Positions 28,683 to 60,456 of a stretch of DNA of 60,490 bases are shown here, in pieces. Under the pieces are notes generated by a model. The model did not search any database. It was not told where the DNA came from and saw nothing but the letters and a program-made list of their open reading frames with translations. The number at the start of each line of letters is the position of its first letter. Position 1 is the first letter of the stretch. This stretch comes from a virus (Duplodnaviria > Caudoviricetes), in IMG/VR virus record IMGVR_UViG_3300035181_000419, positions 1 through 60,490 of that record, one strand, 5' to 3'. The position numbers and the translations under genes are program-made.

Positions 28683-28801
28683 TGGTGCGGCGTGAACATT
28701 CCGAACACCAGCATAGATGCACCCCGAGGTGTGCGGAGTATTAGCTCCTCAGTGCTGCGAGACCAGGAGCGCGGAGCCGCCATAATGGCACTGAATGGGC
28801 A

Positions 28802-28895
28802 TATGCTTATATACCTATATACCCGTATGCTTATACACCCACCTTACACATATAATTATATGCACATATGCTTATACACCTACTATGCACATATA
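28802..28895. repeat. AT-rich short repeats
   Basis: TATGCTTATA(T/C)ACC x3; TATGCACATAT x2. Confidence 0.8.
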
Positions 28896-28939
28896 GCTAT
28901 ATAACTACATGCACAGTAAGGCATACTGTAGCCTAAAGC

Positions 28940-28965
28940 AATGCCCAGCGCATAGGCTGGGCATT
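28940..28965 (-). terminator. Hairpin after island gene
   Basis: AATGCCCAGC-N6-GCTGGGCATT. Confidence 0.6.
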
Positions 28966-28983
28966 GGTTGCCTTGCGGCTGTG

Positions 28984-29484
28984 CTAGGCAGGCACGCTAA
29001 GGGTGATTACCTGCTTTTGCCACGCGCACCTAACGTCACCCGCGTTAATGCTAAACCACGCGCCCGTGGCCGGGTGCTGGGCCGCAAGGCCCCGCACCTT
29101 GCACTGGCCGCTGGCCTGGGCCTTGGCCTGCGCGGGCAGGGTGCAGGCCAGCACGGCGCCCACGGTGCAAGGCTGGCCGTTGCTGGCAAGCTGGCCCATG
29201 GCCTGCAAAATGGCGTTGTGCCCGGCGCTGCGCACGCTACCGTTGGCAGGCACGGGCACGGGGCCAGTGGCCACCAGCAAGCCATGCGTGGGCATGGCGC
29301 CCCCGCAGAGCTGGTGCATGAGGGTGGCCTGGGCCTGCCTGCTACTGGCACCCTGCAACGGCGTGCTGGGCGTGGCGGGCACCGGCACGGCGGGCACGGC
29401 GGGCGCCTTAACGGCGGGCGTGGTGGTGGCGGTGGTGGTAGCCTTGGCGGCCTTGGCGGTGGTGGTGGTGGGCTTGGTAGCCAT
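28984..29484 (-). CDS. 166-aa island protein (0 Glu, 1 Asp): T/A/K/P tail plus putative DNA-binding domain paralogous to 41417 and 56100
   Basis: ATG 29484 with AAAGGGG RBS, own promoter and hairpin; TV...D....ITL pattern. Confidence 0.75.
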   Translation of the reverse strand: MATKPTTTTAKAAKATTTATTTPAVKAPAVPAVPVPATPSTPLQGASSRQAQATLMHQLCGGAMPTHGLLVATGPVPVPANGSVRSAGHNAILQAMGQLASNGQPCTVGAVLACTLPAQAKAQASGQCKVRGLAAQHPATGAWFSINAGDVRCAWQKQVITLSVPA

Positions 29485-29531
29485 TGTGTACCCCTTTGGG
29501 TATGGGCCGGGCGGCATTGCCGGGCTTGCAT

Positions 29532-29561
29532 AGTATAAGCATTGCCCATGCCAAAGTGCAA
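29532..29561 (-). promoter_or_regulatory. Promoter of island gene
   Basis: TTGCAC-N18-TATACT. Confidence 0.65.
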
Positions 29562-29724
29562 GGTGCTGTGTTTGCAGCACTTAGCTATATTACCGCCGTG
29601 GCATAGTGCCGCATTGCGGCATAGCATAAAGGCCCGTTTGCCGCTAAGTGTAGCAATAGCATAACTTAACCTGGTGCCGCGTTGGGGCTATGCTATGCCG
29701 CATTGCGGCACCCGCCCACACGGC

Positions 29725-29853
29725 TCGCCCGTAGCAGCTTTCGTGCCAATTCGCCCTTAGCATCTTTCGTGCCAATTCGCCCTAAGCAGCTTTCGTGCCA
29801 ATTCGCCCTAAGCAGCTTTCGTGCCAATTCGCCCTTAGCAGCTTTCGTGCCAA
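29725..29853. repeat. 26-bp tandem repeat, ~5 copies
   Basis: AGCAGCTTTCGTGCCAATTCGCCCT(T/A) at 29733, 29759, 29785, 29811, partial 29837. Confidence 0.95.
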
Positions 29854-30028
29854 AGCCATTCTTTTCGTTTTCGGTTTCTTTATTCTTTTCTTTTCGTAGT
29901 CTATGCCTCAGGCGCGGAGTCGCGCGGAGTCGCGCAGAGTCCCGCTCGAGCGCCCGCGTGTGAGCTCAACCCGTGAGCTCCTCGGCTCCTCGAGCGAGCG
30001 CCCGCGTGTGAACTCCGCGATCTGTGAT

Positions 30029-30108
30029 CCTGAGTCGCGCAGAGTCAGCCAAAAGATGCTCAAATAAGGAGTCCCCTAAGGGACTCCTCGCGTGCTCGCG
30101 TGTGAACT
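30029..30108. repeat. 80-bp dispersed repeat with terminator hairpin (copy 2 at 30412-30491)
   Basis: CCTGAGTCGCGCAGAGTCAGCCAAAAGATGCTCAAA...GGAG(T/C)CCCCTAAGGGACTCC...GCGTGTGAACT. Confidence 0.9.
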
Positions 30109-30308
30109 CAGTTCCAATTCCCGTAGGCACGTCGCTCAGCTTGCTCTATCGCGCGCTGCCACATCTGGTCTATGAAGTCGCGTAATCGCTGATGCCCTGA
30201 TCGCTTGGCGCGGATTTTCCTTGATTCTCCGGCACACAGCCGCTTGCAGAGGATGTTTCCTGTGTAGGGGTGGCGGGGGAGGCGGCGAGTGTGGGTGGGG
30301 GTGGCCAC
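30108..30308 (-). CDS. Small basic hypothetical protein (66 aa)
   Basis: GTG with AAAGGAG RBS between repeated promoter and terminator. Confidence 0.65.
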   Translation of the reverse strand: MATPTHTRRLPRHPYTGNILCKRLCAGESRKIRAKRSGHQRLRDFIDQMWQRAIEQAERRAYGNWN

Positions 30309-30354
30309 TGTAGGCTCCTTTGGGTTGTGACAGGCACCCTTGCCTGGTATGTAT

Positions 30355-30430
30355 AGTATAGGGCCTATGCAGCTCAAATGCGCCTCAAAGTTTAATCAAA
30401 GATTTTCGAGCCCTGAGTCGCGCAGAGTCA
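30355..30430 (-). promoter_or_regulatory. Repeated phage promoter (58-bp copy at 30901-30958; related at 31920-31966)
   Basis: CTTTGATTAAACTTTGA-N24-TATACT. Confidence 0.75.
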
Positions 30431-30490
30431 GCCAAAAGATGCTCAAACAAGGAGCCCCCTAAGGGACTCCATGCGCGCTCGCGTGTGAAC

Positions 30491-30697
30491 TTAGTTTTTC
30501 GGATAAACCTTGATGCCGTCAACGTAGACAGCTTCAACATCGTGCTCGAATCCCGGTCCGGGGTTATTCACCAGACTATGAATCACATCCAGCTCCCTAG
30601 GATCCAAGAACGCGGACCACGCGGGGAGACCGTTGGCGAAGAAAGGGCTGGGAGTCTCGGGAACTCCGGGCTTACGAGTGATTTGGACGTGTGCCAT
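30491..30697 (-). CDS. Hypothetical protein (68 aa)
   Basis: MAHVQITRK..., AAGGTG RBS, ends at repeated terminator. Confidence 0.6.
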   Translation of the reverse strand: MAHVQITRKPGVPETPSPFFANGLPAWSAFLDPRELDVIHSLVNNPGPGFEHDVEAVYVDGIKVYPKN

Positions 30698-30698
30698 G

Positions 30699-30836
30699 TC
30701 AGCCCACCTTGACCAGACGCCGCGCGATGCGGGGGGAGTTGCCGCAGGCGATGAGCCCGCAGAAGAGATACGAGCAAGCCAGTGCCCAGACGGCGACGGG
30801 CCGGGCAACGCGGACAGTGCAGTGGAACTTGGACAT
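30699..30836 (-). CDS. Small hydrophobic protein (45 aa)
   Basis: MSKFHCTV..., GGGGG RBS downstream of repeated promoter. Confidence 0.5.
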   Translation of the reverse strand: MSKFHCTVRVARPVAVWALACSYLFCGLIACGNSPRIARRLVKVG

Positions 30837-31070
30837 TGTGGACCCCCAGGGGCTGGATGGCGGCACCGTTGCCGCTGGTATAAGTATATAGCCCGCGCCA
30901 CTCAAATGCACCTCAAAGTTTAATCAAAGATTTTCGAGCCCCGAGTCGCGCAGAGTCAAGGTAAATATTCTCAAAACAAGGAACCCTTGAAGTCTCCTTG
31001 CGTAGATCTCGGTGCCGAGCCCCCTAGATGCCTGAGATGAAAATGTCTCGGGGGAGTTCGGTGGATTGGC

Positions 31071-31289
31071 TCATGGCTGCCTCGGGATAATGCTGACCAG
31101 GGTGCCACCGTCCACGAGGGTGCCTTTCTCGATCAGGTGTTTGGGGATCATGAGGACAGGGGTGAGCAGTATCTTACCCTCCTCGATGACCTCCATGGCC
31201 AGGATGTCACCCGGTTGAACTCCGGTCTCTGGAGGCAGCGTGATGCGCTTGCGTGAGTCCGTGGTGAGCTGGAACTTCCTAGGCTTCAT
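31071..31289 (-). CDS. AbrB/MazE/SpoVT-type DNA-binding protein
   Basis: TDSRKRITLP...GVQPGD.....EEGKILLTP; GAGGAG RBS. Confidence 0.8.
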   Translation of the reverse strand: MKPRKFQLTTDSRKRITLPPETGVQPGDILAMEVIEEGKILLTPVLMIPKHLIEKGTLVDGGTLVSIIPRQP

Positions 31290-31458
31290 GGGATCTCCTC
31301 ATGTGAATGATACATCGAGTGAGGTGGTCGTAAAACCAGGCCCCTCTGCGCCTCGAAGTGGGGCCCTGACCGCTACCACCTAGGCATGGGGGCTCGAGGA
31401 GCGTAGAGCGTGGCCCAGAGCTGTCTGGGCCACGTTCTGGGTGCGGTGGCGGGGCTGG

Positions 31459-31779
31459 TTAGGGCTGCTCCGGCGTCGAATCCGGCTCCGGTTCCGTCTC
31501 CGGGGCCTCGTTGTTCTCAGGCTCGGGGCGGATGGGCACGTAGCGGATGGGCTCGAGCGGCGCACAGGAGATGTGGTTGATCTTGCATTCTTCAATCCAT
31601 GCCCCAGCCCACGAGTAACAATACTCCAGCTCCTGTTTCTTGAGAGATTCTCCCACGAGTCTCACGGCCTCGCCCAGAGCCTGGGCATTCGTTTCTCCAG
31701 CGGTGTGGACGTCAAGCTCCAGTTCAAACTTGACACGCACTCGGGTCTTGATCTTCTCATTCCACTCGGAAGGTTTCAT
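31459..31779 (-). CDS. Hypothetical protein with acidic Pro/Glu tail
   Basis: ATG overlaps upstream stop (ATGA). Confidence 0.6.
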   Translation of the reverse strand: MKPSEWNEKIKTRVRVKFELELDVHTAGETNAQALGEAVRLVGESLKKQELEYCYSWAGAWIEECKINHISCAPLEPIRYVPIRPEPENNEAPETEPEPDSTPEQP

Positions 31780-31883
31780 CGGGACAGCTCCGCTGCGAGG
31801 GCCAGCGTGAAAGCGCTGGCGAGGGTTGCGAGGATGATGCCTGAGAGCCAGGCTTTGAGAACGCGAGTTTGTGCCCTTGGCAT
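31776..31883 (-). CDS. 35-aa membrane peptide (not in track)
   Basis: MPRAQTRVLKAWLSGIILATLASAFTLALAAELSR; GGAGG RBS after promoter. Confidence 0.55.
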   Translation of the reverse strand: MPRAQTRVLKAWLSGIILATLASAFTLALAAELSR

Positions 31884-32025
31884 GATAGCCTCCGTGTGCA
31901 GGGTGGCCCTGCACCTATAAGTATAGTGCTCGGTGCCTCAATTGCAAGCTCAAAGTTTAATCAAAGTTTGGCTCGTCACTAAGAGTCGCGTGGAGTCAGA
32001 TTGAATGAATATTCTAGCGGAGATT

Positions 32026-32148
32026 GTCGGTAAAGAGCGGAGTTCGTGGACTCGTGGATCTCCGCGTGTGAACTCAAGTCGCGTCTGTAAAGAGCGGAAT
32101 TCTTTGAGTCTCGGATCTCCGCGTGTGAACTCCAGTCGCGTCGGTAAA
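32026..32148. repeat. 57-bp tandem repeat, ~2.1 copies
   Basis: GTAAAGAGCGGA...GGATCTCCGCGTGTGAACTC.AGTCGCG. Confidence 0.85.
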
Positions 32149-32534
32149 TTAAGGACTGGGATCTCTGTATTATAGCGAAAATGAGCGAAAATGGATTGAG
32201 GGATGAACGTGGAAACTCGGATCTTTGGCCCGATTTATGGAGTAGAAAACACAGATTTTGTGTGGCTCGGCTCTTTGTGCTCAGATCGCTCATCGTTCAG
32301 AGAACATAGTCAACTCGGAAGGATTCCGAATTTTGCATAACTCGGAATCGAGAATCACACCGCCTTTTGGGGGGAGGATTATGGCGGCGCCGGAGATCGG
32401 AGAAGCGAAGAATCTTGGCGAAGATCTGGGCGCTTAACAGAATCTTATCGGGGAATCTTATCGGTGGATCTTATCAATTACTCATTATGGGCAGGCATAC
32501 TCCGTGCCAAAAGGCATCAGAGATCCAAGTTTCC

Positions 32535-32655
32535 AAAAAGTTTATTTTAAGTGTAACCATCTATATATACCTAGAATAAAATAAATAAATATAATAAGTA
32601 AATAAATAGGAAAGTATAGAGTTATAGTTGTGTATTTTGTTTTACAGTATATAAG
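32535..32655. other. AT-rich tract at strand switch, candidate replication origin
   Basis: ATAAAATAAATAAATATAATAAGTAAATAAAT in an otherwise GC-rich genome. Confidence 0.45.
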
Positions 32656-32893
32656 ACCGGCACGCGCAAAAGCCCTTTTTTCGTTATTCAACCTATTGCA
32701 AACAGGGCACATGAGTTTTACGTTTCAAAAGCATTTCCAGCCCCCCACCCGAGAAGCCCAAAATCTGGCCCAATTATGGAGCAAAATGCTCGGTGCCAAA
32801 CTATTACATAAGGTGCCTCGGGGAGTCCCAGAGCCACCTTATATAATAAGCCCCCGCAGACCCAAAAACCGCGCTATTCCGTAAAACAAGCCG

Positions 32894-32922
32894 TTGCGCA
32901 TGAGGAAAACACACCCTATACT
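32894..32922 (+). promoter_or_regulatory. Promoter for early arm
   Basis: TTGCGC-N17-TATACT. Confidence 0.75.
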
Positions 32923-32953
32923 TAGCTAGGCACGGTGGCCTAGGGAGAAACAC

Positions 32954-33457
32954 ATGGAAGAAGAGGAATATATTCCCAAGCGAAAGTCGTCACTTACGGA
33001 GGAACAGCGCTTCGACGATAAGTTGGTGAAGTCCCCCAACTCCGACTGCTGGCTGTGGCAGGGAACGCGGGGCCGAGGCGGGCAGTGCCTTTTCACCCTC
33101 AGTAGCGGCAAGCTGGTTCAGGCTGGACGCTATGCCTGGGAGCGAGCGCATGGCCCCCTTGAGGCGGGCGTCCGCGTTTCGAGGACCTGTTTGAATAGGA
33201 ACTGCATGAACCCGGCGCATCTGTATGTTTACGCCCCCGAAGGCTACAAGCCCAAAGTCGGAGCGCCCGAGCGCGAAATGAAGCCGAACATGCGGATGGT
33301 TGAGAAAAAGATCATGGAGCTTCATGCCGAGCTTACAGCCCAGGGCATGGAGGGCGCGGCCATTGCCGCGAGGCTGAAACGTCGGAAAGTAGAATTGTGC
33401 AAGGAGTTTGGGCTGATCGAAGGCACTAAGTTCCTGAAGAAGGGTGCCAAGGAATGA
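32954..33457 (+). CDS. HNH/His-Cys-box-like protein, degenerate active site
   Basis: DCWLWQG...VSRTCLNRNCMNPAHL. Confidence 0.75.
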   Translation: MEEEEYIPKRKSSLTEEQRFDDKLVKSPNSDCWLWQGTRGRGGQCLFTLSSGKLVQAGRYAWERAHGPLEAGVRVSRTCLNRNCMNPAHLYVYAPEGYKPKVGAPEREMKPNMRMVEKKIMELHAELTAQGMEGAAIAARLKRRKVELCKEFGLIEGTKFLKKGAKE

Positions 33458-33729
33458 GCCGGCCCCCGAGGGTTCTCACGCAGGAACTTCTTGACACCCT
33501 GGTCGAGAAACAGCCGAACGGATGCTGGCTGTGGCTCGGAGCGGTCAGGAATGGGAAGCCTGTGTGGTGGACCCAGACGGCGGCCCGCGAGGTGGCGCTG
33601 ATGCAAAACGGAAGCGCCCCGTGTTTTCACCTTTCTACATCGTGCGGGAACGCGCTCTGCGTGGCGCCCGAGCACATCGTCAACCGTAGAACAAAGGAGC
33701 ATGTATGCCAGCCAATCAGGCTTACCTAG
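33454..33729 (+). CDS. HNH-like protein, degenerate
   Basis: GCWLWLG...LSTSCGNALCVAPEHI. Confidence 0.65.
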   Translation: MSRPPRVLTQELLDTLVEKQPNGCWLWLGAVRNGKPVWWTQTAAREVALMQNGSAPCFHLSTSCGNALCVAPEHIVNRRTKEHVCQPIRLT

Positions 33730-33911
33730 GGGACGCACTGTATGTCGCAGTGGTGCATGGCGCGGCGCTGGAGCTGCGTGCCAACGACTTAGAGGATCCG
33801 TCAGACGTGGTGTATCTGGAGCACGAGACCTACGAGGCTCTGATCCGGTTCGCTGACCAGCTTGGGTGGCCGCGACCGGCGTTGCCGAGCGCGGACCATA
33901 AGGAGCACTGA
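33705..33911 (+). CDS. Phage hypothetical protein
   Basis: YLGDALYV...VYLE..TYEAL; AAGGAG RBS. Confidence 0.7.
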   Translation: MPANQAYLGDALYVAVVHGAALELRANDLEDPSDVVYLEHETYEALIRFADQLGWPRPALPSADHKEH

Positions 33912-34096
33912 TGACCCCTGTCTGTTCTTTCTGTGGAACCGAGGCCCCAGAAGCAGAGCTGCTGCTCCAGTGTGGTCAGAACCCCCGCGTATTCATTTGT
34001 TCCTGGTGCGTGGAGTCCGCCCTGCCGGCCATCGCCGCCTATCGCCGGAGCCATGGCTGGAAGCGCGTCCCGCCCCCGCCCCGCAGCAACACCTGA
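33911..34096 (+). CDS. Stand-alone ClpX-type C4 zinc-finger protein
   Basis: CSFCG...LL......FICSWCV. Confidence 0.8.
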
Positions 34097-34141
34097 AGTT
34101 TCATCGCAACAGGGCGGCAGCCCGACAGGAGGATTAGCCAA

Positions 34142-34888
34142 ATGGATGTGAAATCCGTTACATGCGAGGCCCTTAGGGACATGCTGGCCGACCCCCGGAG
34201 GTGGTCCACCGACGATGACGGCCCCAAGGTGAGTCTCGCCGGAGTTAACCTCTCCAGGATGAATCTCGCAGGAGTGGACCTCAGCAGGGCGGACCTCTCT
34301 GGTGCGGATCTCGCTGGAGCGAACCTCTCCAGGGCGAACCTCTCAGGAGCTAACCTCGTGAGGGCGGACCTTTGCGGGGCGGACCTTTGCGGGTCTAACT
34401 TCTCCAAGGCGAACCTCCTTGGGGCTAACCTCTTTGGGGTGGACCTCTATGGGGCGAACCTCTGCGGGGCGGACCTCTCGGAGGCTAACCTCATCAGGAC
34501 CGACTTCACCAGGGCTGACCTCTCCGATGCGGATCTCTACGGAGCGGATATATCGTGGGCGGACTTCTACAAGACGAACATCACCAGGACGGCCTTCTAC
34601 GGGTCTAAATACTGCGGTATGACGTTTGCGGCGGTCGTCGTCATGGTTGGCCTCTACCGGTATCAGTGCTGGGCTGTCGTCACCACCGACGGCACCCCGT
34701 TCGTTCGCATGGGGTGCCTCTGGCATTCCGTGGCCGAATGGGACGCCATCGGCATCCGCAACAGCAACACCACTGAGTTCCCCGATGACGGCAGCGACAT
34801 CTCCGAGGAACGCGCGGAGGCCTTTGAGCTTATGCGGGCCAAGGCGCTCCGTATGGCTGAGGCACACAGGAAGCTGGGTGGGCTGTAG
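34142..34888 (+). CDS. Pentapeptide-repeat protein with C-terminal domain
   Basis: A(D/N)LxG repeats; C-terminal VRMGC....EW. Confidence 0.9.
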
Positions 34889-34910
34889 GGTCAGCGTGGG
34901 GGTTAGGCGC

Positions 34911-35096: not shown

Positions 35097-35098
35097 GA

Positions 35099-35156
35099 GC
35101 CTAACTTTCTAGCTAGCCGGAGCTGTCAGGCGCGCGGGTTGAGCGAGCAGTTAGGG
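35099..35156 (+). mobile_element. attC-like (59-be-like) integron recombination site
   Basis: GCCTAAC-TTTCT-AGCTAGCCG...CGGGTTGAGC-GAGCA-GTTAGGG, 58 bp, imperfect palindrome. Confidence 0.6.
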
Positions 35157-36145: not shown

Positions 36146-36192
36146 GTTTGACCTAACTTTGACCGGCAAGCGCCTTAGCCGAGCCCTATACT
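36146..36192 (+). promoter_or_regulatory. Direct-repeat-type phage promoter
   Basis: GTTTGACCTAACTTTGA-N24-TATACT. Confidence 0.75.
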
Positions 36193-36249
36193 ATGGCATG
36201 GCAACCGGGCCAGCCCTCGCCCCTAACCGGCCCCACGGAGGAAATCGGA

Positions 36250-36876
36250 ATGAAGCCCTATACACGCAAAGAAATCGAGGCCTTCCAGGCTGACCCCAAA
36301 GGGTGGCTCAGGAAGAATGGCGGCTACAGGGCAGATCTTTCCGAGGTAGACCTCCATGACGCAGACCTCTCAGGTGTGGACCTCACCAGTGCAGACCTCA
36401 CCAACGCGAACCTCAGAGGGACGAACCTCTATGGGGCAAACCTCCGCGGGGTGGACCTCCGCGAGGCGGATCTAGCCGGGTCGGACCTCACCAGGGCCAA
36501 CCTCCATGGAGCGAACCTCTATGGTGCGAACCTATCTATGGTAAACCTCTCCGGATCAAACCTATCCGGGTCAAACCTATCAGGGGCTGACCTAGCCGTG
36601 TCGGATCTCTACGGCGCGGACCTTTATGGTGCAGACCTTACCGGGGCTGACCTTACCGGAGCAGGCCTCGCCGGAGCTGGCCTAACCGGGGCGGATCTCA
36701 CTGAGGCGGACCTAACCGGGGCAGACCTCACCAGGGCTGACCTCACCAGGGCGAATCTCCACGGAACGAACCTCTATGGAGCGAACCTCTATGGAGCGAA
36801 CCTCACAGGAGCGGACCTAACCGGGGCCAACCTCTATGGGGCGAACCTCCCTATGACAGAGCTCACCAGGCTCTAA
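36250..36876 (+). CDS. Pentapeptide-repeat protein
   Basis: ~35 A(D/N)LxG repeats; GGAGG RBS. Confidence 0.9.
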   Translation: MKPYTRKEIEAFQADPKGWLRKNGGYRADLSEVDLHDADLSGVDLTSADLTNANLRGTNLYGANLRGVDLREADLAGSDLTRANLHGANLYGANLSMVNLSGSNLSGSNLSGADLAVSDLYGADLYGADLTGADLTGAGLAGAGLTGADLTEADLTGADLTRADLTRANLHGTNLYGANLYGANLTGADLTGANLYGANLPMTELTRL

Positions 36877-39242: not shown

Positions 39243-39289
39243 CTTTGACTAAAGGTTGAGCCAGCCTCTGGCCCAACGAGCCTTATACT
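39243..39289 (+). promoter_or_regulatory. Direct-repeat-type phage promoter
   Basis: CTTTGACTAAAGGTTGA-N24-TATACT. Confidence 0.7.
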
Positions 39290-41287: not shown

Positions 41288-41333
41288 GTTTGATGCAACT
41301 TTGACTTGCGCCCGCTTTGTTGAAGCATATGCT
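41288..41333 (+). promoter_or_regulatory. Direct-repeat-type phage promoter
   Basis: GTTTGATGCAACTTTGA-N23-TATGCT, also TTGCGC. Confidence 0.7.
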
Positions 41334-41416: not shown

Positions 41417-41827
41417 ATGGCTGCTACTTCCACCAAGATCCCCGCTGGTTCGCGCCCCGCCCCGGCGCTCCCCGCCGCCCCCAAGGCGAAGGTCCAGCCC
41501 ATCAAGCAGGCCGACGTCCCCGAGGGCGTTGCCAAGGCTGTCCGCGGCCATCTCGCTGACCGCCCCACCTGTTCCGCTATCCGCAAGGAGATCGCGAACA
41601 GCGACATCATCACCAAGGCGGCCGACACCACGGCGCGGCAGGGGTCGCTGCGCTACAACATCATGAAGGCCATCCAGGCGTCCGCGACGGTGGCCGAGGC
41701 CATCTCCAAGGAGGTCCACGGCCCCGGCAAGCACGAGGCGCTGGACAAGCCCTACCGCATCAAGCGGGTGGATGTCGGGTTCGCGCGGGCCAACGGGCTC
41801 ATCACGCTGACCAAGGCGGACAAGTAG
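41417..41827 (+). CDS. Basic A/K/P-tailed putative DNA-binding protein (paralogue 2)
   Basis: ARQGSLRYNI...ATVAEAI...DVGFARANGLITL; AAAGGAG RBS; strong GC3 bias. Confidence 0.75.
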   Translation: MAATSTKIPAGSRPAPALPAAPKAKVQPIKQADVPEGVAKAVRGHLADRPTCSAIRKEIANSDIITKAADTTARQGSLRYNIMKAIQASATVAEAISKEVHGPGKHEALDKPYRIKRVDVGFARANGLITLTKADK

Positions 41828-44087: not shown

Positions 44088-44285
44088 ATGGATAAGATCT
44101 TCCACATCCACGGGTGGGCGTCAGACGGAAAGCCGCTTATTCGGCATGGGACTGAGATCATGGGCGCGGCTCTCGGTAAGAAAGACCGAGCAACTCTGGC
44201 TTCGCTTAAAGTTGGGGAATCCTTCACCCCTTTGTTCACAACCCTGTCAGGTAAGATCGCCTACCGTGTGGAGCGTGTCCAGTGA
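44088..44285 (+). CDS. Hypothetical protein
   Basis: GAGGGG RBS. Confidence 0.6.
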   Translation: MDKIFHIHGWASDGKPLIRHGTEIMGAALGKKDRATLASLKVGESFTPLFTTLSGKIAYRVERVQ

Positions 44286-44911
44286 AGACTCCCTCTGTCC
44301 ATGAACAAATCAGAGCCTATGGGGGAGAGACACTGTCAAATGAACAGATCATTGATCTGTTGCTCCCAGGTATGGGGCCGGGGCATCTGGGCGCATGGCG
44401 CCTCAGCGAACTCATTAGCATGAGTGGACAGCAGCTTGTGGAAGAGTGCGAGCTAACGAAGCTCCAAGCATCGCGGATCGTAGCTCTTGGTGAATTCGTC
44501 CGCAGGTGTGGCGCCCCCTCAAAACACGCTTGCATCAATACTCCCCGGTTGGCCGGAGAATATCTACTTCCGAAAGCTAAGGGTTTGACAGAGGAGGTAT
44601 TCGGTGTCGTGTGCCTTAACTCCAGAGCGCGCGTTATATCTGATCGCATTGTCTCAAAGGGAACGTCTACGGGGACTCTCGTTGGACCACGCGAAGTTCT
44701 TAGAGAAGCGCTTCTTAGAGGGGCCGTGTCCGTGCTCGTGTGGCACAACCATCCGAGCGGCGATCCAAGCCCTAGCCGAGAAGACATATCTCTCACGCGA
44801 CGTCTCCGCGCAGGATGCGATGCTATCGGAGTTCCTCTTGCGGACCACATCATTGTGGGCGAAGACACCTACCACAGTTTCAGATCCTCGGAGGGCTGGG
44901 ATGTTAGATGA
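44282..44911 (+). CDS. radC: RadC-family JAB domain protein (full length)
   Basis: HNHPSGDPSPSRED...DHIIVG plus N-terminal helical part. Confidence 0.92.
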   Translation: MKTPSVHEQIRAYGGETLSNEQIIDLLLPGMGPGHLGAWRLSELISMSGQQLVEECELTKLQASRIVALGEFVRRCGAPSKHACINTPRLAGEYLLPKAKGLTEEVFGVVCLNSRARVISDRIVSKGTSTGTLVGPREVLREALLRGAVSVLVWHNHPSGDPSPSREDISLTRRLRAGCDAIGVPLADHIIVGEDTYHSFRSSEGWDVR

Positions 44912-50007: not shown

Positions 50008-50107
50008 GGGCTGATGGCGAAACGGCAAACGCGGTGTGATCACACTGGCTGCAAAGGGCATGACGTCTGCCCTAGCTTTGAAGGTTCAAATCCTTCTCAG
50101 CCCACCA
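50008..50107 (+). ncRNA. tRNA-like RNA lacking a canonical anticodon loop
   Basis: Acceptor GGGCTGA/TCAGCCC-A-CCA, D arm GCG-AAACGGCAAA-CGC, T arm GAAGG-TTCAAAT-CCTTC; anticodon arm is GTGTG-AT-CACAC. Confidence 0.8.
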
Positions 50108-53804: not shown

Positions 53805-54278
53805 ATGCTGCTACAAAAGATCAACGAAGCTCGCAGTTACCCGTGCTGCGAAGTGATGCAGCCCCCCGGCCACTACCGCGTTGATGTCGCAATCACGCCC
53901 AAGGTCAAGAACCTGCCCCAACCTGTGACAATGCACGTCTATAAGTGTCACAAGTGCTACCGTAAGATGCTGACAGACCATGACTTAAGTATCTTAGAAG
54001 TGAGTGGCGTCCAGAACCCGACAGTGGCGTGGGCTAGGAGCCACGGCATCAGAGCCACTAAGCTCCAAGGTCAGGGTAATCGCTCACTTCCTGACTACGA
54101 GTTTTGGATCAAAGGCGGAAAGCCCAAATTGATGGAGTTCAAGCGCCCCGGAGAACTTCCGACCGCGCTCCAGGAAGACACCATCGCGAAGTTTGCCGCT
54201 GACGGCTACGTGGTTGAGATACACGATGACAAGCACTCCGCCATCGCTTCCCTGCAAAGGTCACTAGATGCTCGTTGA
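53805..54278 (+). CDS. VRR-NUC nuclease with N-terminal Cys domain
   Basis: LPDY...MEFKRPG..PTALQ. Confidence 0.8.
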   Translation: MLLQKINEARSYPCCEVMQPPGHYRVDVAITPKVKNLPQPVTMHVYKCHKCYRKMLTDHDLSILEVSGVQNPTVAWARSHGIRATKLQGQGNRSLPDYEFWIKGGKPKLMEFKRPGELPTALQEDTIAKFAADGYVVEIHDDKHSAIASLQRSLDAR

Positions 54279-55743
54279 AACCGCCCGCCCCGCAGTTCCC
54301 TGGATTCCTCACAACTATCAGAAGAACGTGATGAAGTTCATGCTAGAGAACGCGTCGGCGGGGCTGTTGCTAGACCCCGGCCTTGGGAAGACTTCATGCA
54401 CCTTTGGGACGCTGAAGGTTCTCAAGGCAAAGAGCATGATGAAATCTGCTTTGGTCATCGCACCACTACGAGTCTGCTACGCAGTATGGCCCCGTGAGGC
54501 CGAAAAGTGGAAAGACTTTAATGACATGAAGGTGGTGGTGCTACATGGAAAAGACAAAGAAGCCAATCTCTCAGTTAAAGCAGACATCTATGTCATCAAT
54601 CCGGAAGGGCTGGAATGGCTATTCTCTAATCCACGCTTTAAGAAATTAGCCCCAGATATTTTGGTGATTGATGAGAGTAGCCGGTTCAAGAATACGCAGG
54701 CCAAGAGGTTCAAGGCGCTAAAACCTTGGCTGAAGACATTCCGAAGGCGCTACATTCTGACCGGAACACCTGCCCCCAATGGACTACTGGACCTATTTGG
54801 GCAGATCTATATCCTAGACCTGGGAAAGTCCTTTGGCCCCTACATCACAAAGTTCAAGAACGACTTCTTTTATCCTTCTGGGTTTGGGGGGTTCACTTGG
54901 CGTCCGAAGAATGATACAGCAGAGCGCATCAATGAACTGCTCAAGCCGCTGACCATTCGTCTTGAGGATAAGGACTACCTAGAAATTCCGCAGCTTGTGA
55001 CTAGCCCAGAAACCGACATTATCATTGATCTGCCAGATGATGCTCGGAAAATCTATCATGACCTTGAAAAGGAAATGATAGCCAAACTATCCGAGACCGA
55101 AGTTCTGACAGCGATGAGCGCGGCAACCGCAAGTATGAAGTGCAGGCAGCTCGCGAATGGTTGCGTCTACAGACAACTGGAATACGCGCCCGCTATGAAG
55201 GAGGATAGGTGGCACTATGTCCATGACGAAAAGATTAAGGCGCTTGAAGATTTTGTTAGTGAACTTAATGGGAAACCTCTGCTTGTCGCCTACGAGTTCG
55301 TTCATGACATGGAAAGGATTCGTAAGGCGTTTCCAACTGCGACGTTCGTTGCGGACATCAAGGCATCCAAATTCGCTGATGTTGAGCGTAGATGGAACGC
55401 GGGGGAAATTGAAATGCTGGTGGGGCACCCCGCCTCGATTGGTCACGGGCTCAATCTGCAGGAAAGCGGAAACCACATCCTCTTCTACGGCCCCACCTGG
55501 GATTTGGAGCTATACGACCAGTTCATTAAGCGCATCCTGCGACAAGGCAACAAAAGTTCCCACGTCTTCGTGTATCATATCCTAGCAAGAAATACCGTAG
55601 ATTTCGCTGTGATGCGAGCGCTTCGGGGGAAGGCCAAGGTTCAGAGCAGCCTACTCGAGTCGCTTAAGGACTACGCATCTGAGGTTGAGTTCAATCCAAC
55701 CGGAAGCGAAGCGGCACGTGCGATCATGAAGAATCTAATTTAG
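54268..55743 (+). CDS. SNF2-family helicase
   Basis: DPGLGKT, IDESS, LTGTP, GHGLNLQ, QFIKRILRQG. Confidence 0.93.
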   Translation: MLVETARPAVPWIPHNYQKNVMKFMLENASAGLLLDPGLGKTSCTFGTLKVLKAKSMMKSALVIAPLRVCYAVWPREAEKWKDFNDMKVVVLHGKDKEANLSVKADIYVINPEGLEWLFSNPRFKKLAPDILVIDESSRFKNTQAKRFKALKPWLKTFRRRYILTGTPAPNGLLDLFGQIYILDLGKSFGPYITKFKNDFFYPSGFGGFTWRPKNDTAERINELLKPLTIRLEDKDYLEIPQLVTSPETDIIIDLPDDARKIYHDLEKEMIAKLSETEVLTAMSAATASMKCRQLANGCVYRQLEYAPAMKEDRWHYVHDEKIKALEDFVSELNGKPLLVAYEFVHDMERIRKAFPTATFVADIKASKFADVERRWNAGEIEMLVGHPASIGHGLNLQESGNHILFYGPTWDLELYDQFIKRILRQGNKSSHVFVYHILARNTVDFAVMRALRGKAKVQSSLLESLKDYASEVEFNPTGSEAARAIMKNLI

Positions 55744-56099
55744 CATTTTGTTCCTCACCCCCTTGCGCTTGACCGATGGAAGTGCTACCCTTGGTTTGCG
55801 CTACTTTTCTGAATAGGTCCCAAGTGACTGAAACCTACCAGCTCCGCTGTGATCTACAACGCCACGTCGTGTTACTTGTCGGAACCAGTGGCGATCAATC
55901 CTTTTACATCGCCAAGGAGAAATCTAAGGTTGATGTTCTTAAGACTCGCCGTGCAGCATTTGACAAGGAATACTGCATGGAGATTACTGAGTATTCATTA
56001 GCGGACTTCGCTAACCGAACGCTCAAATTAAAAGAACTAGGGGTGCAAATCACCCCTCGGGCTGCGGCCCATCTCAACACCCTCTCAAAGGAGCCATTC

Positions 56100-56480
56100 A
56101 TGGCCAAGGTCCAGAAGATCCAGGAACCCGCGTCGGACGCCCAGGTCGATCCGGTCACCCCCGCCGCCAAGCCTGCCAAGGAGCCCAAGGCTCCCAAGGA
56201 GCCCAAGGCCCCCAAGCTCAACGAGGACGGCTCCATCATCGAGCCCACGCCGCGCAACCGCCGCGAGAAGATCGATGGCGACCGCAAGATCAAGGTGATT
56301 GGCGCGAACCCCGCGCGGCTCGGGACCACGCGCCATGCCATCGTGGAGTTCATTCTCGGAGCTCGGACCGTGGCGGAGGCTCTGGATAACAGCGTGGTTC
56401 GCAAGGATGGCACCGAATACAAGATCGGTATGCCCGACATCTACTTCGCTCTGGAAAACAATCTGATCGAGCTCATCTAG
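56100..56480 (+). CDS. K/P/E-tailed putative DNA-binding protein (paralogue 3); frame open upstream to GTG 55824
   Basis: AAAGGAG RBS; NPARLGTTRHAI...RTVAEAL...DIYFALENNLIEL. Confidence 0.75.
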   Translation: MAKVQKIQEPASDAQVDPVTPAAKPAKEPKAPKEPKAPKLNEDGSIIEPTPRNRREKIDGDRKIKVIGANPARLGTTRHAIVEFILGARTVAEALDNSVVRKDGTEYKIGMPDIYFALENNLIELI

Positions 56481-56496
56481 TCGTCGGTCGCCATAA

Positions 56497-56535
56497 TTCG
56501 CCCCGTCTGTGGTTTAGTCCATAGCCGGGGCGAAG
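56497..56535 (+). terminator. Hairpin after paralogue 3
   Basis: TTCGCCCCG...CGGGGCGAA. Confidence 0.55.
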
Positions 56536-56551
56536 TTCTCTGGAGTGTCAA

Positions 56552-57508
56552 ATGAAAACTGTGGTGTTCAGTTTCAATCCTCCTACACCCGACGGCTCGT
56601 TGGCAAACGCGCGAACTGCGACTTTTATTGCTGACACGCTCGATGTCCCACTTATTTGTGATAAGAATATCGCAGATGTTGAGGCTGATGTTCTCATTCT
56701 TGTGGCGGGTGTTTTCATGTATTGTCGTTGTCTGCCCGAAGTCGGCGCCGCTGTAGAAAAAGCCAAGCGCGTCGTCTGGGCACAGAATGACTACACCATC
56801 AAGCCCCCGCTTGCGGACGGCATTGCCGAAAGCCCGTTTAGAAAAGCATTCAGGAACCGTAGGTCTGCTGGTCTGCCCGATGTTGATTTCTGGACCACAA
56901 TGAAGAAGGCCTCAGAAAAGACGCCCTTCAGTGCGTGGGTGAACTGGAATCAGATGGCGTATGAAACCCCCATCAGTGACGAAGCTTTTGAGCTGAATCG
57001 TGAGCACGCCATTGAATCATTCATCTACTACGGGGCCGATAGGCTGGGGCGCCGAGACTACTTTGACTGGTATTTCAATGGACAGAAGGCGCCATTGACT
57101 ATCAGTTCCTTTAGTAAGTCAATGTCTCGCTACGAAGATGATGCCGATATCATTCCTGCATTCAAGCGAACTGAGTTCTTTGACCGATTGGGCCAGTATT
57201 CCGCCGGGCTATACCTGGAGGACAAACGCTCGCACGCCGAGTTCACCAGCCCTGCCACGCGGTTCTATGAGATGCTCCGCGTGGGGGTTGCCATGTTCTT
57301 TCAGCCCCAGGCGGTTCCCATGCTGGCGAAGGCTGGGTTCGATGTTGCGCCCTTTGTTGCCACGCCGGGGCAGCTACCAGACGCGCTCAGCAGGGCGCCA
57401 GAGGTGGCTCGCCAGCAACGGGCACTGTGGGGTGGTAGGCCCTACCTTCAGCACCTAAAGGAACAGCTTTTGCGAGAGCACGCACGCATCCAGGAGGGTG
57501 TCAAATGA
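56552..57508 (+). CDS. GT-B glycosyltransferase resembling T4 DNA beta-glucosyltransferase
   Basis: WAQND (cf. BGT YLFTD), FIYYGADRLGRR (cf. VIYGGSFRSGQR), LYLEDK...ATRFYEML (cf. LIIGDK...TLRVWETM); comparison from memory. Confidence 0.72.
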   Translation: MKTVVFSFNPPTPDGSLANARTATFIADTLDVPLICDKNIADVEADVLILVAGVFMYCRCLPEVGAAVEKAKRVVWAQNDYTIKPPLADGIAESPFRKAFRNRRSAGLPDVDFWTTMKKASEKTPFSAWVNWNQMAYETPISDEAFELNREHAIESFIYYGADRLGRRDYFDWYFNGQKAPLTISSFSKSMSRYEDDADIIPAFKRTEFFDRLGQYSAGLYLEDKRSHAEFTSPATRFYEMLRVGVAMFFQPQAVPMLAKAGFDVAPFVATPGQLPDALSRAPEVARQQRALWGGRPYLQHLKEQLLREHARIQEGVK

Positions 57509-58353
57509 GTAATCCTATGCGCGTAGACGACCTGTGCTATTGGATCAAAGAGCGCCATTCCATCTATACCAAGAAGCAGGCTGGGGAGCCAAAGCCTTGG
57601 ACCCAGGACCCAATCTTGCAAAGTTATCGGTTCTGCAATGTCTATCGAAATCTCGATACCGTGACAGAATGGATCCACGCAAACTGGATGAACCGCAGCG
57701 ATCCGAATATGTTCGTGGCTATGGCTATCGCACGGTTCGTGAACTGGCCAGACACCCTTGAAGAAATGGGGTTTCCGTTGCCGTGGGATCCCGAGCATTT
57801 TGTATCGGTCCTACATGATCGCCGGCGCAGGAACGAGAAGGTTTACAGTGGGGCCTACATCGTATCCACTAACGGCCACGCCATGGATAAGGCCGAGTAT
57901 CTCGCCAACTTCGTCATCCAGCCCATCTGGGACAACCGCATTGACGTTCGCCCAAAGAAGGGTGACACTCTTGAGTCCTTCTACCAGCGGCTTGTCAAGT
58001 TCGATGGGCTGGGCAGCTTCATGGCTGGGCAGGTGATAGCTGATCTGAAGTATGACAAGTTCAGCCCACTTTACGAAGCAAGCGATGAATTCAGTTGGGC
58101 GACCAGCGGGCCTGGGAGTCGGCGAGGCATGAACCGTGTCATCCAGCGGCCTCCTGCAGCGCCTATCACTGAGCGGGTGTGGAGGGAGAACCTGACCATC
58201 CTTCACCAAGCCGTTCAGGACAGGCTCGCCCCTTTGGGTATGCCGCCAATCTGCGCCCAGGACCTCCAGAACGCATTATGTGAGTTCGACAAATTCGAGC
58301 GCGTCCGGCTTGGGGAGGGCACCCCGCGCTCCGGATACCCTGGGAGGGGCTGA
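57505..58353 (+). CDS. aGPT-Pplase1-like (5-hmdU hypermodification-associated, glycosylase-like helical) protein
   Basis: ERHSI...PKPWTQDPILQSYRFCNVYRNLD, GLGSFMAGQVIADL, GPGSRRG, QNALCEFDK. Confidence 0.85.
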   Translation: MSNPMRVDDLCYWIKERHSIYTKKQAGEPKPWTQDPILQSYRFCNVYRNLDTVTEWIHANWMNRSDPNMFVAMAIARFVNWPDTLEEMGFPLPWDPEHFVSVLHDRRRRNEKVYSGAYIVSTNGHAMDKAEYLANFVIQPIWDNRIDVRPKKGDTLESFYQRLVKFDGLGSFMAGQVIADLKYDKFSPLYEASDEFSWATSGPGSRRGMNRVIQRPPAAPITERVWRENLTILHQAVQDRLAPLGMPPICAQDLQNALCEFDKFERVRLGEGTPRSGYPGRG

Positions 58354-59345
58354 TGGAATTCCGTGCAAGAAACCTCACGCAGGTGATGGCCGCGTGCCTT
58401 CCTAAACTTGTGGAGGGAACCGCAGAGTCCTCGCGTAACGGGCCGGTGATCTTAATTGACGAACCGGTGATCCTCACTTACGAGAAACCTTGCGAGCGAG
58501 TGCTGTTCTCACCCACACGCGACGCTAACCCATTCTTTCATCTAATGGAAGCTCTATGGATGCTGGCGGGGCGCGACGACGTTGAGTTTCCCACCAGGTT
58601 CAATTCAAAGTTCAGCCAGTTCTCAGATAATGGTGTGACCTTCAATGGAGCCTACGGTTTCAGATGGCGCAAGTATTTTGACACAGATCAGATTGAACTG
58701 GCTGTCAAAGAACTAACGGAGAACCCAGGTTCAAGGCGCGTAGTAATCGGGATGTGGGATCCGATGTGCGATCTTGGATCCACGAGCAAAGACATCCCGT
58801 GCAACACGCACATCTATCTGAGCATCCGGGAGAACTCTGGTCTGCTGGATATGACAGTGTGCAACCGAAGCAACGATGCAATCTGGGGGGCCTTTGGCGC
58901 GAACGCTGTTCACATGAGTATTCTTCAAGAATACCTGGCGGCATCAATTGGCGTGGGCGTTGGGCGCTACCGACAGGTGACAAACAATCTCCACTTCTAC
59001 TCGGATACCTTCAGCGTGGAGAAACTATCACGCATTGCGGATGAGTGTGCATCAGACACGGCGTATTCACTAGGACGTGTCAGTCCTTATCCGCTGATCT
59101 CCATTTCCCCAGGCTGCTGGATGACTGAGCTCCGCGAGTTCCTGGCGAAGCCATCAATGAAGCCTGAGAACTACCACGATGGCTTTTTCGCCGAAGTGGC
59201 GGCCCCCATGTTCGCCGCTTGGGGGGAACGGAAGGCTAATGGGGACACGCATAAAATGAACCAGCTCATAGAAAGCATCGCCGCTTATGACTGGCGCGTG
59301 GCCTGCCGAGAATGGGTTGTCCGTAGGAGTAAGAAAGATGTATAA
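58353..59345 (+). CDS. Thymidylate-synthase homologue, probable dUMP hydroxymethylase
   Basis: RDANPFFH, SRRVV, KDIPCN, RSNDAIWGAFGAN (Asn = dUMP-type), NNLHFY. Confidence 0.85.
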   Translation: MEFRARNLTQVMAACLPKLVEGTAESSRNGPVILIDEPVILTYEKPCERVLFSPTRDANPFFHLMEALWMLAGRDDVEFPTRFNSKFSQFSDNGVTFNGAYGFRWRKYFDTDQIELAVKELTENPGSRRVVIGMWDPMCDLGSTSKDIPCNTHIYLSIRENSGLLDMTVCNRSNDAIWGAFGANAVHMSILQEYLAASIGVGVGRYRQVTNNLHFYSDTFSVEKLSRIADECASDTAYSLGRVSPYPLISISPGCWMTELREFLAKPSMKPENYHDGFFAEVAAPMFAAWGERKANGDTHKMNQLIESIAAYDWRVACREWVVRRSKKDV

Positions 59346-59841
59346 CAGACTGAGGTTCCTTTATGGGGGGCTGGCTACCAAGCGGTTCCACACCCTTCGG
59401 ACTATCCAAGAGAATACCGTCGGCCACCACTCTTGCGGTGTGGCCCTGCTAGTGGCTGAGTTGTCGGAATCAACTCCGCGGGCGGAACTTCTACTCGCGT
59501 GCCTGCGGCACGACCTCGCAGAACACAAGGCTGGCGACTCTCCCGCGCCTGCCAAGCGAGAGGGCGGCTTCGGTGAACTTCTGAATAGTTACGAGGCCAA
59601 ACTCCTAGAAGAGCAGTGGGGGAAGGCGGGCCTGACCAGTGAGGAATTCCGTCTGTTCAAGATCGCTGATTGCTTGGATGGCATCATGTTCTGCATCAGT
59701 GAACGCACCATGGGAAATCGTCATCTTGACGGGGCCTACAAGAATTTCCGTGACTACATCGCGGAACTGCATCCGACCCCTCATGAGAGTTACATCATCG
59801 GGGTCGTATGCGCCCCTTGGAGGGAACTTGTCAATGGATAA
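59338..59841 (+). CDS. HD-domain 5'-deoxynucleotidase (YfbR-like)
   Basis: RFHT...TVGHHS, HDLAE..GD.PAPAK, KIADCLD. Confidence 0.85.
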   Translation: MYNRLRFLYGGLATKRFHTLRTIQENTVGHHSCGVALLVAELSESTPRAELLLACLRHDLAEHKAGDSPAPAKREGGFGELLNSYEAKLLEEQWGKAGLTSEEFRLFKIADCLDGIMFCISERTMGNRHLDGAYKNFRDYIAELHPTPHESYIIGVVCAPWRELVNG

Positions 59842-60058
59842 TGAACCCACAAGAACGGTGTCATTAGCAGAGGCGTTTCCGCTAGAACAACAGCGCATCC
59901 GCGAAATGATAGAAATCTACGGAGAATGTGGCCCTGGCGGTAGACGTATGCAAATCGTCCTGAACGACATCCTGTCCCGTTCAATGCAGGCGGCTGCGAA
60001 TCAAGACGTCGTGGCCATGCTGAAATCCTACTATGAAATGAAGGAGGAACAACTGTGA
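59834..60058 (+). CDS. Hypothetical protein
   Basis: SLAEAFPLEQQRIRE...DVVAML; coupled. Confidence 0.7.
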   Translation: MDNEPTRTVSLAEAFPLEQQRIREMIEIYGECGPGGRRMQIVLNDILSRSMQAAANQDVVAMLKSYYEMKEEQL

Positions 60059-60456
60059 GCAGTCCTAACGAAAGGCAGGTCGGGGGCGGCCACTACAAAT
60101 CTGAGTTTCAGCACTGGGATTTTGTGCTGGGGGTCCTAGGTGGTCGCTATCTTGAAGGATGTCTTACCAAGTATGCGAGCCGTTGGCGAAAGAAAAACGG
60201 CCTGCAAGATCTTGACAAGGCGGAGCATTATCTTGACAAACTTCTTTCCACTGTGGAGGCAAATCAGAATGTCTACAGGGGAACTCCGGACGAAGTCATC
60301 CGACCGGCTGCACGCATGGCTAGGGCGTTTGCCGAAGCCAACGATTTGAACGAACACGAGACTGCCATCATGGTTCGCGTCGCTACGTGGAGCACCACAG
60401 CCGATCTTGAGGCAATTAGGGTCCATATCGCACAGTTGAGGCTTTTGGCTCCATAA
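60055..60456 (+). CDS. DUF3310 (SaV-like) protein
   Basis: QVGGGHYK, QHWD, KYASRWRKKNGLQDLDKAEHY. Confidence 0.88.
   Translation: MSSPNERQVGGGHYKSEFQHWDFVLGVLGGRYLEGCLTKYASRWRKKNGLQDLDKAEHYLDKLLSTVEANQNVYRGTPDEVIRPAARMARAFAEANDLNEHETAIMVRVATWSTTADLEAIRVHIAQLRLLAP

Follow-up and report, generated by a model that had tools for sequence, protein, structure and literature searches.

A conserved gene cassette purged of GA/TC steps in a Caudoviricetes genome that encodes a predicted T4 BGT-like sugar transferase

Hypermodification of phage DNA is regarded as armour against restriction and CRISPR. The locus considered here lies in IMG/VR record IMGVR_UViG_3300035181_000419, a Caudoviricetes genome whose whole sequence of 60,490 bases is referred to below as the window, and it has two parts: an island of 931 bp (28794-29724) that holds one transcription unit nearly devoid of the dinucleotides GA and TC, and a module of putative DNA-modification genes that includes a predicted sugar transferase at 56552-57508. 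The closest described counterparts are the pathways by which the phages M6, ViI, PhiW-14, SP10 and PaMx11 derive hypermodified thymidine from 5-hmdU (PMC5889632, PMC8989533, PMC6449724). The likeness to these M6-type pathways consists in a hydroxymethylase of the thymidylate-synthase (TS) type, in what would be partial modification after replication, in the TG/TC context of the modified sites, and in a homologue (35% identity) of M6 CDS0046. The window differs in containing neither the PF18751 kinase nor PF18724, with a GT-B transferase in their place, and M6 for its part has no island.

Other systems can be compared in the same way. The glucosyl-hydroxymethylcytosine system of T4 likewise pairs an enzyme that hydroxymethylates a pyrimidine with one that transfers sugar to DNA, and it provides the best structural match to the transferase of the window, but the base here is probably hydroxymethyluracil, and no Pfam or PDB sequence match links the window to the T4 enzymes. 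We know of no blank island in T4. Pathways based on T-dioxygenases (5mYOX97, PMC13229309) share TC-selective thymine modification and a link to glycosyltransferases, and their authors raise an "epigenetic-like" role; there, however, hydroxymethyluracil is made on DNA, whereas here it would be made at the nucleotide level by the TS homologue. No TET/JBP-type family was present in the Pfam scans made of the window, and the accessible text of PMC13229309 contains no target-free cassette. Base J of kinetoplastids (PMC7055916, 10.1101/502252) is probably the same kind of base and has a reader protein, but it is a eukaryotic, dioxygenase-made and rare mark. In the open literature, subscription journals aside, neither a cassette purged of a modification-target dinucleotide nor a kinase-less module of a transferase and a PF18723 protein was found described.

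The purge is evident from the composition of the window. There are 7,907 GA/TC steps in the genome, one per 7.7 bases, and the island contains four of them (at 29005, 29036, 29308 and 29320) where about 120 would be expected. The three longest GA/TC-free gaps, of 405, 272 and 212 bp, all reside within the island; the fourth longest measures 58 bp, and the expected maximum is about 69 bp. Windows of 100 bp with two or fewer GA/TC are confined to the island, and in 60 Markov-1 simulations such regions arose at a mean of 0.12 per genome. A comparable hole is absent for every other dinucleotide class in the genome. GA and TC are reverse complements, so that a single step is banned from both strands, and the avoided word is this dinucleotide, not a restriction recognition site.

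The island contains one gene (28984-29484, minus strand) encoding a protein of 166 amino acids with an N-terminus rich in Ala, Thr, Pro and Lys, a single Asp and no Glu. All nine Ser codons of the gene are AGY, and the GA/TC steps that survive in it fall in two CTC codons, one ATC and one GAC. The protein matched no Pfam family, had no usable Atlas match, and belonged to no defence or anti-defence family in those searches. Upstream is a sigma-70-like promoter, TTGCAC-N18-TATACT (29532-29561, minus strand), which scores under the threshold of a consensus scan and has the same layout in relatives; the ribosome site is AAAGGGG. An inverted repeat 3′ of the stop codon (28936-28969, minus strand; terminator-like at 28957-28943) forms a hairpin that is likely the terminator. 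The purged sequence continues past both ends of the transcription unit. About 190 bp of A+T-rich repeats lie beyond the terminator, with two families of direct repeats at 28795-28907, and 240 bp upstream of the promoter also belong to the island, including a GA/TC-free pair of 23-nt inverted repeats (29606-29711) that are 96% complementary. On both strands the purge takes in the whole unit from promoter to terminator as well as the untranscribed DNA beside it, so that the GA/TC-free transcription unit reported in an earlier note on this DNA is recovered, with four GA/TC left in its 931 bp. GA/TC-rich repeat arrays border the island on either side: two families of direct repeats between terS and the island (28592-28681), a possible terminase site, and five 26-bp tandem repeats (29725-29854) that start exactly at its right edge.

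The GA/TC purge is under strong selection. A scan of IMG/VR with the large terminase subunit (TerL) yielded 80 loci (L-numbers denote loci, G-numbers whole records and W the window), among which nine distinct contigs have a TerL identity of at least 67%, the island relatives ranging from 67 to 98%. Six of the nine contain the full island directly upstream of terS (L010/L016, L011/L014, L012/L015, L013, L017 and L021); in L019 and L020 it is cut by the contig end, and the L018 contig stops short of the region. The islands of these relatives differ from that of the window at 159-389 bases, a divergence of 26-49%, and GA/TC-creating changes make up 33% of all possible point mutations in the island. 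Yet the number of GA/TC seen is 0 against about 128 expected in L017 (389 aligned differences), 0 against 77 in L012, 0 against 52 in L013, 1 against 62 in L011, 2 against 88 in L021 and 8 against 73 in L010. The island proteins of L010-L013, L017 and L021 contain no Glu and zero to two Asp, in sequences that can barely be aligned.

These observations bear on whether the bias might arise at the level of RNA, for example through a ribonuclease that cuts at GA or UC, or else through mutational bias or chance. The ribosome site would fit the first of these, being AAAGGGG rather than GGAG. An RNA-level reading is contradicted, however, by the absence of both GA and TC from the same strand and from the untranscribed flanks. 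TT and AA are not enriched in the island (0.95 and 1.02, respectively), so the purge is not a scar of TC-to-TT deamination; it has also been kept through the divergence described above, and no such windows as those of the island appeared in the simulations. Explanations of this group are exceedingly improbable.

The putative writer genes lie on the plus strand, directly downstream of an SNF2-family helicase gene (54268-55743). They begin with a 234-amino-acid protein (55776-56480) whose C-terminus carries a domain discussed below, just before the transferase, and continue with a GT-B glycosyltransferase of 318 amino acids that is T4 BGT-like by fold (56552-57508), a PF18723 (HMUDK_hel) protein of 282 amino acids homologous to M6 CDS0046 (57505-58353), a TS homologue of the dUMP-hydroxymethylase type (58353-59345), an HD-domain nucleotide hydrolase (59287-59841) and a DUF3310 protein (60055-60456). 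The writer operon proposed in the earlier note is thereby largely borne out, as the TS homologue, the HD protein and the DUF3310 protein are present and the protein labelled a BGT-like transferase is a GT-B protein with T4 BGT as its best match. The TS homologue matches PF00303 (2.4e-18) and phrog_5131 (5.5e-112), is 46% identical to the M6 enzyme and has an NRSND...GAN motif in common with it.

The 318-amino-acid protein is predicted to be a BGT-like sugar transferase, an assignment supported by fold because T4 BGT ranks first. By sequence it has no Pfam family at E ≤ 10 and no PDB match better than E 0.25, and 37 homologues were found. An AlphaFold model built with 24 homologues (pLDDT 93.8, pTM 0.90) has T4 BGT as its top Foldseek match (1qkj, 1c3j and 1bgt; E 2e-9 to 6e-8, TMq 0.64-0.69), followed by T4 AGT, including complexes with DNA that contains hydroxymethyluracil (HMU); sequence identity to the T4 enzymes is 9-13%. 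Residues D46, D80, E223, D224 and R164/R167 are invariant in the alignment of the family.

Next to the transferase, the PF18723 protein matches its family over the full length (2e-44; Pfam name "HMUDK_hel, 5-hmdU DNA kinase, helical domain") and M6 CDS0046 at 35% identity (E 8e-54), and no Walker A motif is found in its 282 residues. In M6, CDS0046 follows the P-loop kinase gene and by gene order corresponds to gp55, which was dispensable in the authors' reconstitution (PMC8989533). The earlier note had called this gene aGPT-Pplase1. PF18723 was presumably once named aGPT-Pplase1, which would reconcile the two names. The P-loop 5-hmdU DNA kinase of the M6 gp54 type, PF18751, has no six-frame match in the genome at E ≤ 1, and the best tblastn match of M6 CDS0045, the P-loop kinase, has an E value of 1.9. 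Likewise, the amino-acid:DNA transferase PF18724 (formerly aGPT-Pplase2) has no six-frame match at E ≤ 1, and M6 CDS0042 has no match. With no recognisable 5-hmdU kinase or amino-acid transferase, the pathway therefore differs from those that have been characterised.

Loci encoding the transferase can be followed beyond the close relatives of the window. Searching with the transferase alignment identified 31 loci. Setting that group aside leaves 27, in 24 of which the transferase is accompanied by a PF18723 gene and in 22 by a TS homologue. For comparison, 71 loci with a TerL identity of at most 62% (712 kb in total, as pieces of 4-17 kb around terL and not whole genomes) served as controls, a zone being defined by a GA/TC content of at most 25% of the genome's own mean. 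The lowest count in any 300-bp window of the control loci is at least 11 GA/TC; among transferase loci, L113 and L119 have such windows with a single GA/TC, and the counts are 8 in L121 and 10 in L114. GA/TC-poor zones occur in six of ten transferase-bearing whole genomes (W, G001, G002, G003, G007 and G008). Those of G001-G003 are intergenic, and G001 has one GA/TC in 322 bp in addition to a second zone of 750 bp. M6 and G009, which lack the transferase, have no zone (lowest ratios 0.65 and 0.26), and M6 has no island for any dinucleotide class. The association between zones and transferase is real but incomplete: zones are found in these six genomes and in none of the controls, but four transferase genomes are free of them. 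A simpler rule, that zones occur only where the P-loop kinase is missing, fitted the first seven genomes and failed at 12; it is broken by G007 and G008, which have both kinase and zones, and by G006 and G010, which have neither. As a separate observation, the GA/TC-free intergenic zone of L119 ends at about 13480-13495 (about 30650 in G001) in CTGT-N8-ACAG, a LexA-box-like element before an exonuclease-like gene.

The ban on both strands, including untranscribed DNA, the cost to the island protein of two kinds of amino acid and the tracking of zones with the transferase together suggest that something reads duplex DNA at TC. Of the candidates, the modification made by the phage itself is the simplest. 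The explanation we prefer, at even confidence, is that a sugar mark is placed on hydroxymethyluracil in TC context and that the cassette is kept blank. The sequences establish the genes, the purge with its persistence in diverged relatives and its link to the transferase module; the modification itself, TC as its target and the use of a blank cassette are inferred. According to this proposal, 5-hydroxymethyluracil would replace thymine through the TS-type dUMP hydroxymethylase, the HD hydrolase and the DUF3310 protein. After replication the T4 BGT-like transferase, assisted by the PF18723 protein, would add a sugar to part of the hydroxymethyluracil, the marked subset being that followed by C (5′-TC-3′, which reads GA on the complementary strand). 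A single transcription unit, next to the genes for terminase, would be written without TC on either strand; it would carry no bulky mark and would present ordinary DNA to the host RNA polymerase and to DNA-binding proteins, at entry and later.

Several published findings are consistent with individual steps of this proposal. It is established that hydroxymethyluracil can be modified in part and according to context (PMC5889632), and the restriction sites that resist cleavage in M6, ViI and PhiW-14 DNA are enriched in TG/TC (PMC6449724). The phage T-dioxygenase 5mYOX97, from a clade linked to glycosyltransferases, prefers NTC (PMC13229309). In vitro, bacterial RNA polymerase is stopped at promoters by bulky groups in the major groove but not by hydroxymethyluracil (PMC11550810).

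Certain observations weigh against the proposal of a TC-context sugar mark. The case for modification is built on genes and sequence, the controls for the zones are the terL-centred pieces mentioned above, and no zone is present in G004, G005, G006 and G010 although these encode the transferase. The purge is also imperfect, with four GA/TC kept in the island of the window and eight in that of L010. Early genes outside the island are full of GA/TC, and their promoters contain 3-4 GA/TC between -45 and +12; a complete block of transcription by the mark is thus excluded, and GA/TC-rich early genes leave the need for a blank cassette unexplained. Finally, TCGA occurs 98 times where 194 would be expected, which is odd if TC sites are shielded from restriction.

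If a TC-context mark is nevertheless what the cassette avoids, the phage would also manage the cost of its armour by leaving chosen DNA unmarked, and would possess a kinase-less route to a sugar-bearing thymine resembling base J. The genome sequence by itself would then reveal the TC target context of an uncharacterised enzyme, a cheap way of predicting specificity from metagenomes. The cassette is at the same time a natural experiment, in which a protein family is forced to work without Asp and Glu. With its promoters defined and possible readers named, the system also allows a direct test of whether a DNA mark regulates phage transcription.

Instead of a mark of its own making, the cassette could be avoiding an agent that cuts or marks at TC/GA, such as a host defence that senses modified bases and would overlook a blank leader, a TC-specific DNA-modifying toxin or a phage nuclease, with an early counter-measure encoded inside it. 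The symmetry of the purge and its extension into untranscribed flanks do imply an action on duplex DNA, and the cassette adjoins the terminase genes in all relatives whose contigs reach the region. Restriction pressure on other short words is also apparent. In the whole genome GTAC occurs 8 times (at 8719, 9502, 12164, 17692, 21147, 29488, 37209 and 42517) against about 119 expected, ACGT, TCGA and CTAG reach 0.5-0.64 of the expected number, and depletion extends to many GC-rich 6-mer palindromes, a sign of strong avoidance of restriction sites; 6-mer palindromes without GA/TC are more depleted than those with it (p = 0.014). Motif avoidance in the first-entering DNA of phages is familiar from the T7 leader with Ocr and from the first-step transfer of T5. 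Such systems (T7/Ocr, T5, PMC12455610) resemble the island in word avoidance and in a short segment with a pioneer gene, leading in those systems and putatively so here, and in other phages the early-injected region is reported to set the sensitivity to Type I restriction (PMC12455610). However, the words avoided in T7 and T5 are restriction sites of 4-8 bp, whereas here it is a bare dinucleotide, at the price of two amino acids, and a bare dinucleotide is recognised by no known restriction system. Such an agent would still attack the remainder of the genome, where GA/TC is plentiful, and the Pfam and Atlas searches placed the island protein in no family of defence or anti-defence proteins. 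Its association with the transferase lets the purge fit this reading only if the defence senses the product of the module, which folds this explanation into the preferred one. On balance, avoidance of such an agent is unlikely. A GA-specific deazaguanine modification of the DpdA type, which is known from other work (PMC10484667), was also considered and rejected, as no such family is present in Pfam scans of 54 open reading frames (ORFs) of the window.

The promoters outside the island carry elements of a different kind. Pairs of TCAAA/TTTGA at 11-bp spacing occur seven times in the genome against 0.21 in shuffled sequence, and TTTGA-N6-TTTGA-N24-TATACT is found at six sites, the 41289 site having N23 and TATGCT; the repeat at fixed spacing that had been reported as TCAAAG/CTTTGA is thereby confirmed. 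On the minus strand, the TTTGA-box promoters are those at 30355-30401 (TATACT at 30360, three boxes 11 bp apart), 30883-30929 (30888, with a third box 11 bp on) and 31920-31966 (31925, TTGCAA-N16-TATACT). On the plus strand they are located at 36147-36192 (36187, before a pentapeptide-repeat gene), 39244-39289 (39284, with one mismatch in the second box) and 41289-41333 (about 41328, -10 element TATGCT, before the gene at 41417). The boxes fall at about -52 and -41, and at two sites also at -30. Five of the six box promoters lack a normally spaced -35 match, which suggests dependence on an activator. Promoters of the lambda CII type contain a TTGC-N6-TTGC direct repeat, and the TTTGA boxes are similar to these in being direct repeats with a 6-nt spacer upstream of the -10 element, the word itself (TTTGA) and the position (about -52/-41) being different. 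The boxes are kept in the close relatives L010-L013, and their exact form is absent in L017 and L021. Repeated units of 85-93 nt (29912-30113, 30355-30496 and 30883-30975), in which GAGTCGCGC(A/G)GAGTC words are combined with a terminator-like hairpin and TTTGA boxes, have the look of modules in which three short leftward units begin and end.

A depletion of GA/TC in promoter cores had also been claimed, and this claim is weak. The nine promoter-like TATACT sites have 0-4 GA/TC between -45 and +12 and other TATACT sites 5-10, and regions with at most 4 GA/TC per 100 bp number 11 against 2.7 in simulations (maximum 7), so an excess over simulation is present. Outside the island, however, the low regions at matched thresholds are 5 for GA/TC, 5 for AC/GT, 13 for CC/GG and 24 for AA/TT, and the depletion is thus no stronger than that of these three classes. 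A consensus scan of the genome for promoters and terminators gave counts at chance level.

Two genes outside the island share a domain that might belong to an activator. The protein encoded at 41417-41827 (plus strand) consists of a basic low-complexity N-terminal half and a C-terminal domain of about 65 amino acids, and it resembles the C-terminus of the 55776-56480 protein over a domain of about 60 amino acids (37% identity, E 9e-7, blastp); in both paralogues a tail rich in Lys, Ala and Pro precedes the domain. Database matches of the 41417-41827 protein are limited to unnamed viral clusters. AlphaFold2 models of the C-terminal domain have a pLDDT of about 88-92. Foldseek found nothing at E ≤ 0.001, and the matches given by VIA, among which winged-helix proteins (PriA, Cdc6/Orc1, Fur, MarR and ScpB) are frequent, are weak (Z ≤ 4.6). 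A DNA-binding-like function of the predicted domain would be plausible. The domain directly precedes the transferase in L001, L003, L004, L098 and L100, and its C-terminal part stands at the start of the L002 contig. In L101 (4165-6033) and L120 (987-2939) it occupies the C-terminal end of an open frame matching SNF2, and thus looks fused to the helicase. An extra paralogue with acidic residues is encoded in L010 (4549-4899) and L011 (4018-4380), about 1.1 kb from the island, and is absent from the window.

The earlier note had counted the island protein as a third member of this family. The similarity between the 41417 protein and the C-terminus of the 55776 protein stands, but the island protein of the window is not significantly similar to either (blastp E 0.25, hhalign probability 1%, no profile match). 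Intermediate sequences connect it less directly: the L021 island protein matches an iterated profile at E 8e-38 and a paralogue pairwise at E 2e-13, the L017 island protein matches the profile at 0.024, and the window protein matches that of L017 at E 2e-5. Because the window protein misses significance, the case for three paralogues is carried by its position and by these intermediates.

Boxes and paralogues were joined in the earlier note into a regulatory circuit, in which a blank pioneer gene and two paralogues read marked TCAAAG boxes and switch the host polymerase. The six TTTGA-N6-TTTGA promoters, five of them without a -35 match, would serve as its activator-dependent promoters; the boxes are conserved in L010-L013 and each carries TC on the opposite strand. 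A paralogue is encoded directly before the transferase, the domain is seemingly fused to the SNF2 frame in L101 and L120, and a box promoter drives the 41417 gene. The basic Lys/Ala/Pro tails and the small domain with its weak winged-helix-type matches would also suit such readers. Opposed to this are the lack of significant similarity between the island protein and the other two, fold matches too low to be meaningful (Z ≤ 4.6, with none from Foldseek), the lack of the exact box in the relatives L017 and L021 although they have islands, and the weakness of the promoter-core depletion. In addition, sigma-70-like promoters exist outside the island at 32917, 23504 and 31925. A TTGC-type -35 element is common to these and the island promoter, and therefore the island gene is not the sole gene able to start unaided. 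The circuit as the earlier note had it is decidedly improbable, and the idea of a reader or activator is doubtful to a similar degree. A full version, which we consider quite unlikely, would have the kinase-less transferase mark hydroxymethyluracil in every TC step and the host polymerase express the blank cassette, at the genome terminus, from the entering DNA; its acid-free, winged-helix-like product and two paralogues, one of them built into the operon of transferase and SNF2 helicase, would read the sugar-marked TTTGA/TCAAA boxes and shift the host polymerase to marked promoters. If true, the virus would possess an epigenetic timing switch of its own making.

The record does not place the island at a physical end of the genome. 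The window is the whole virus record. Its first and last 247 bases (1-247 and 60244-60490) overlap with 11 mismatches, and contigs of relatives cross the junction of the two ends, which makes the record a wrap-around assembly, about 60.2 kb long, with an assembly overlap for ends. Within the overlap, an ORF at 30-266 (minus strand) is probably a shadow of the DUF3310 gene. These features matter for a mechanical alternative, according to which the stretch of DNA packaged last and ejected first must be free of bulky sugar so that it can rest inside, or travel through, the channel of portal and tail. Lambda packages last, and ejects first, the genome end far from its terminase genes. The island does lie beside terS and terL, and the morphogenesis genes are lambda-like. 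However, the zones of G001-G003 are internal and intergenic, the record wraps around, and the edges of the island match a transcription unit, which a purely mechanical limit does not require. A constraint of this sort is very improbable.

The remainder of the window is divided between two gene blocks. Structural genes occupy 1-28.5 kb on the minus strand, including lambda-like tail L and tail I genes, a scaffold and a DUF4055 portal, with terL at 26573-27916 (minus strand) and a terS-like ORF at 27931-28476 that has no Pfam match. From 30 to 60.5 kb the genes lie mainly on the plus strand and encode two pentapeptide-repeat proteins, an HNH protein, RadC, a DUF3854/DUF5906 primase-helicase, a ligase, PolA, a PD-(D/E)XK nuclease and the SNF2 helicase. 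A tRNA-like element that the earlier note had placed at 50008-50107 does not register with ARAGORN, whose scan of the genome gave no tRNA. Searches with megablast and blastn found no close relative among deposited phages; the nearest cultured match is at 35% (the PF18723 protein, Yuavirus), and the best TerL match, at 55%, is uncultured. Near-identical contigs are present in four metagenome runs from sediment and microbial mat, none of them an RNA run; strain variants and fragment breaks occur among these contigs, which carry no signal of ends, depth or modification. The RadC-like protein of the early region (44282-44911) has a JAB domain (Pfam 6.6e-39). The pentapeptide-repeat proteins are encoded at 34142-34888 (Pfam E 2e-52) and, behind a TTTGA-box promoter, at 36193-36876 (7e-61), and both may be DNA mimics.

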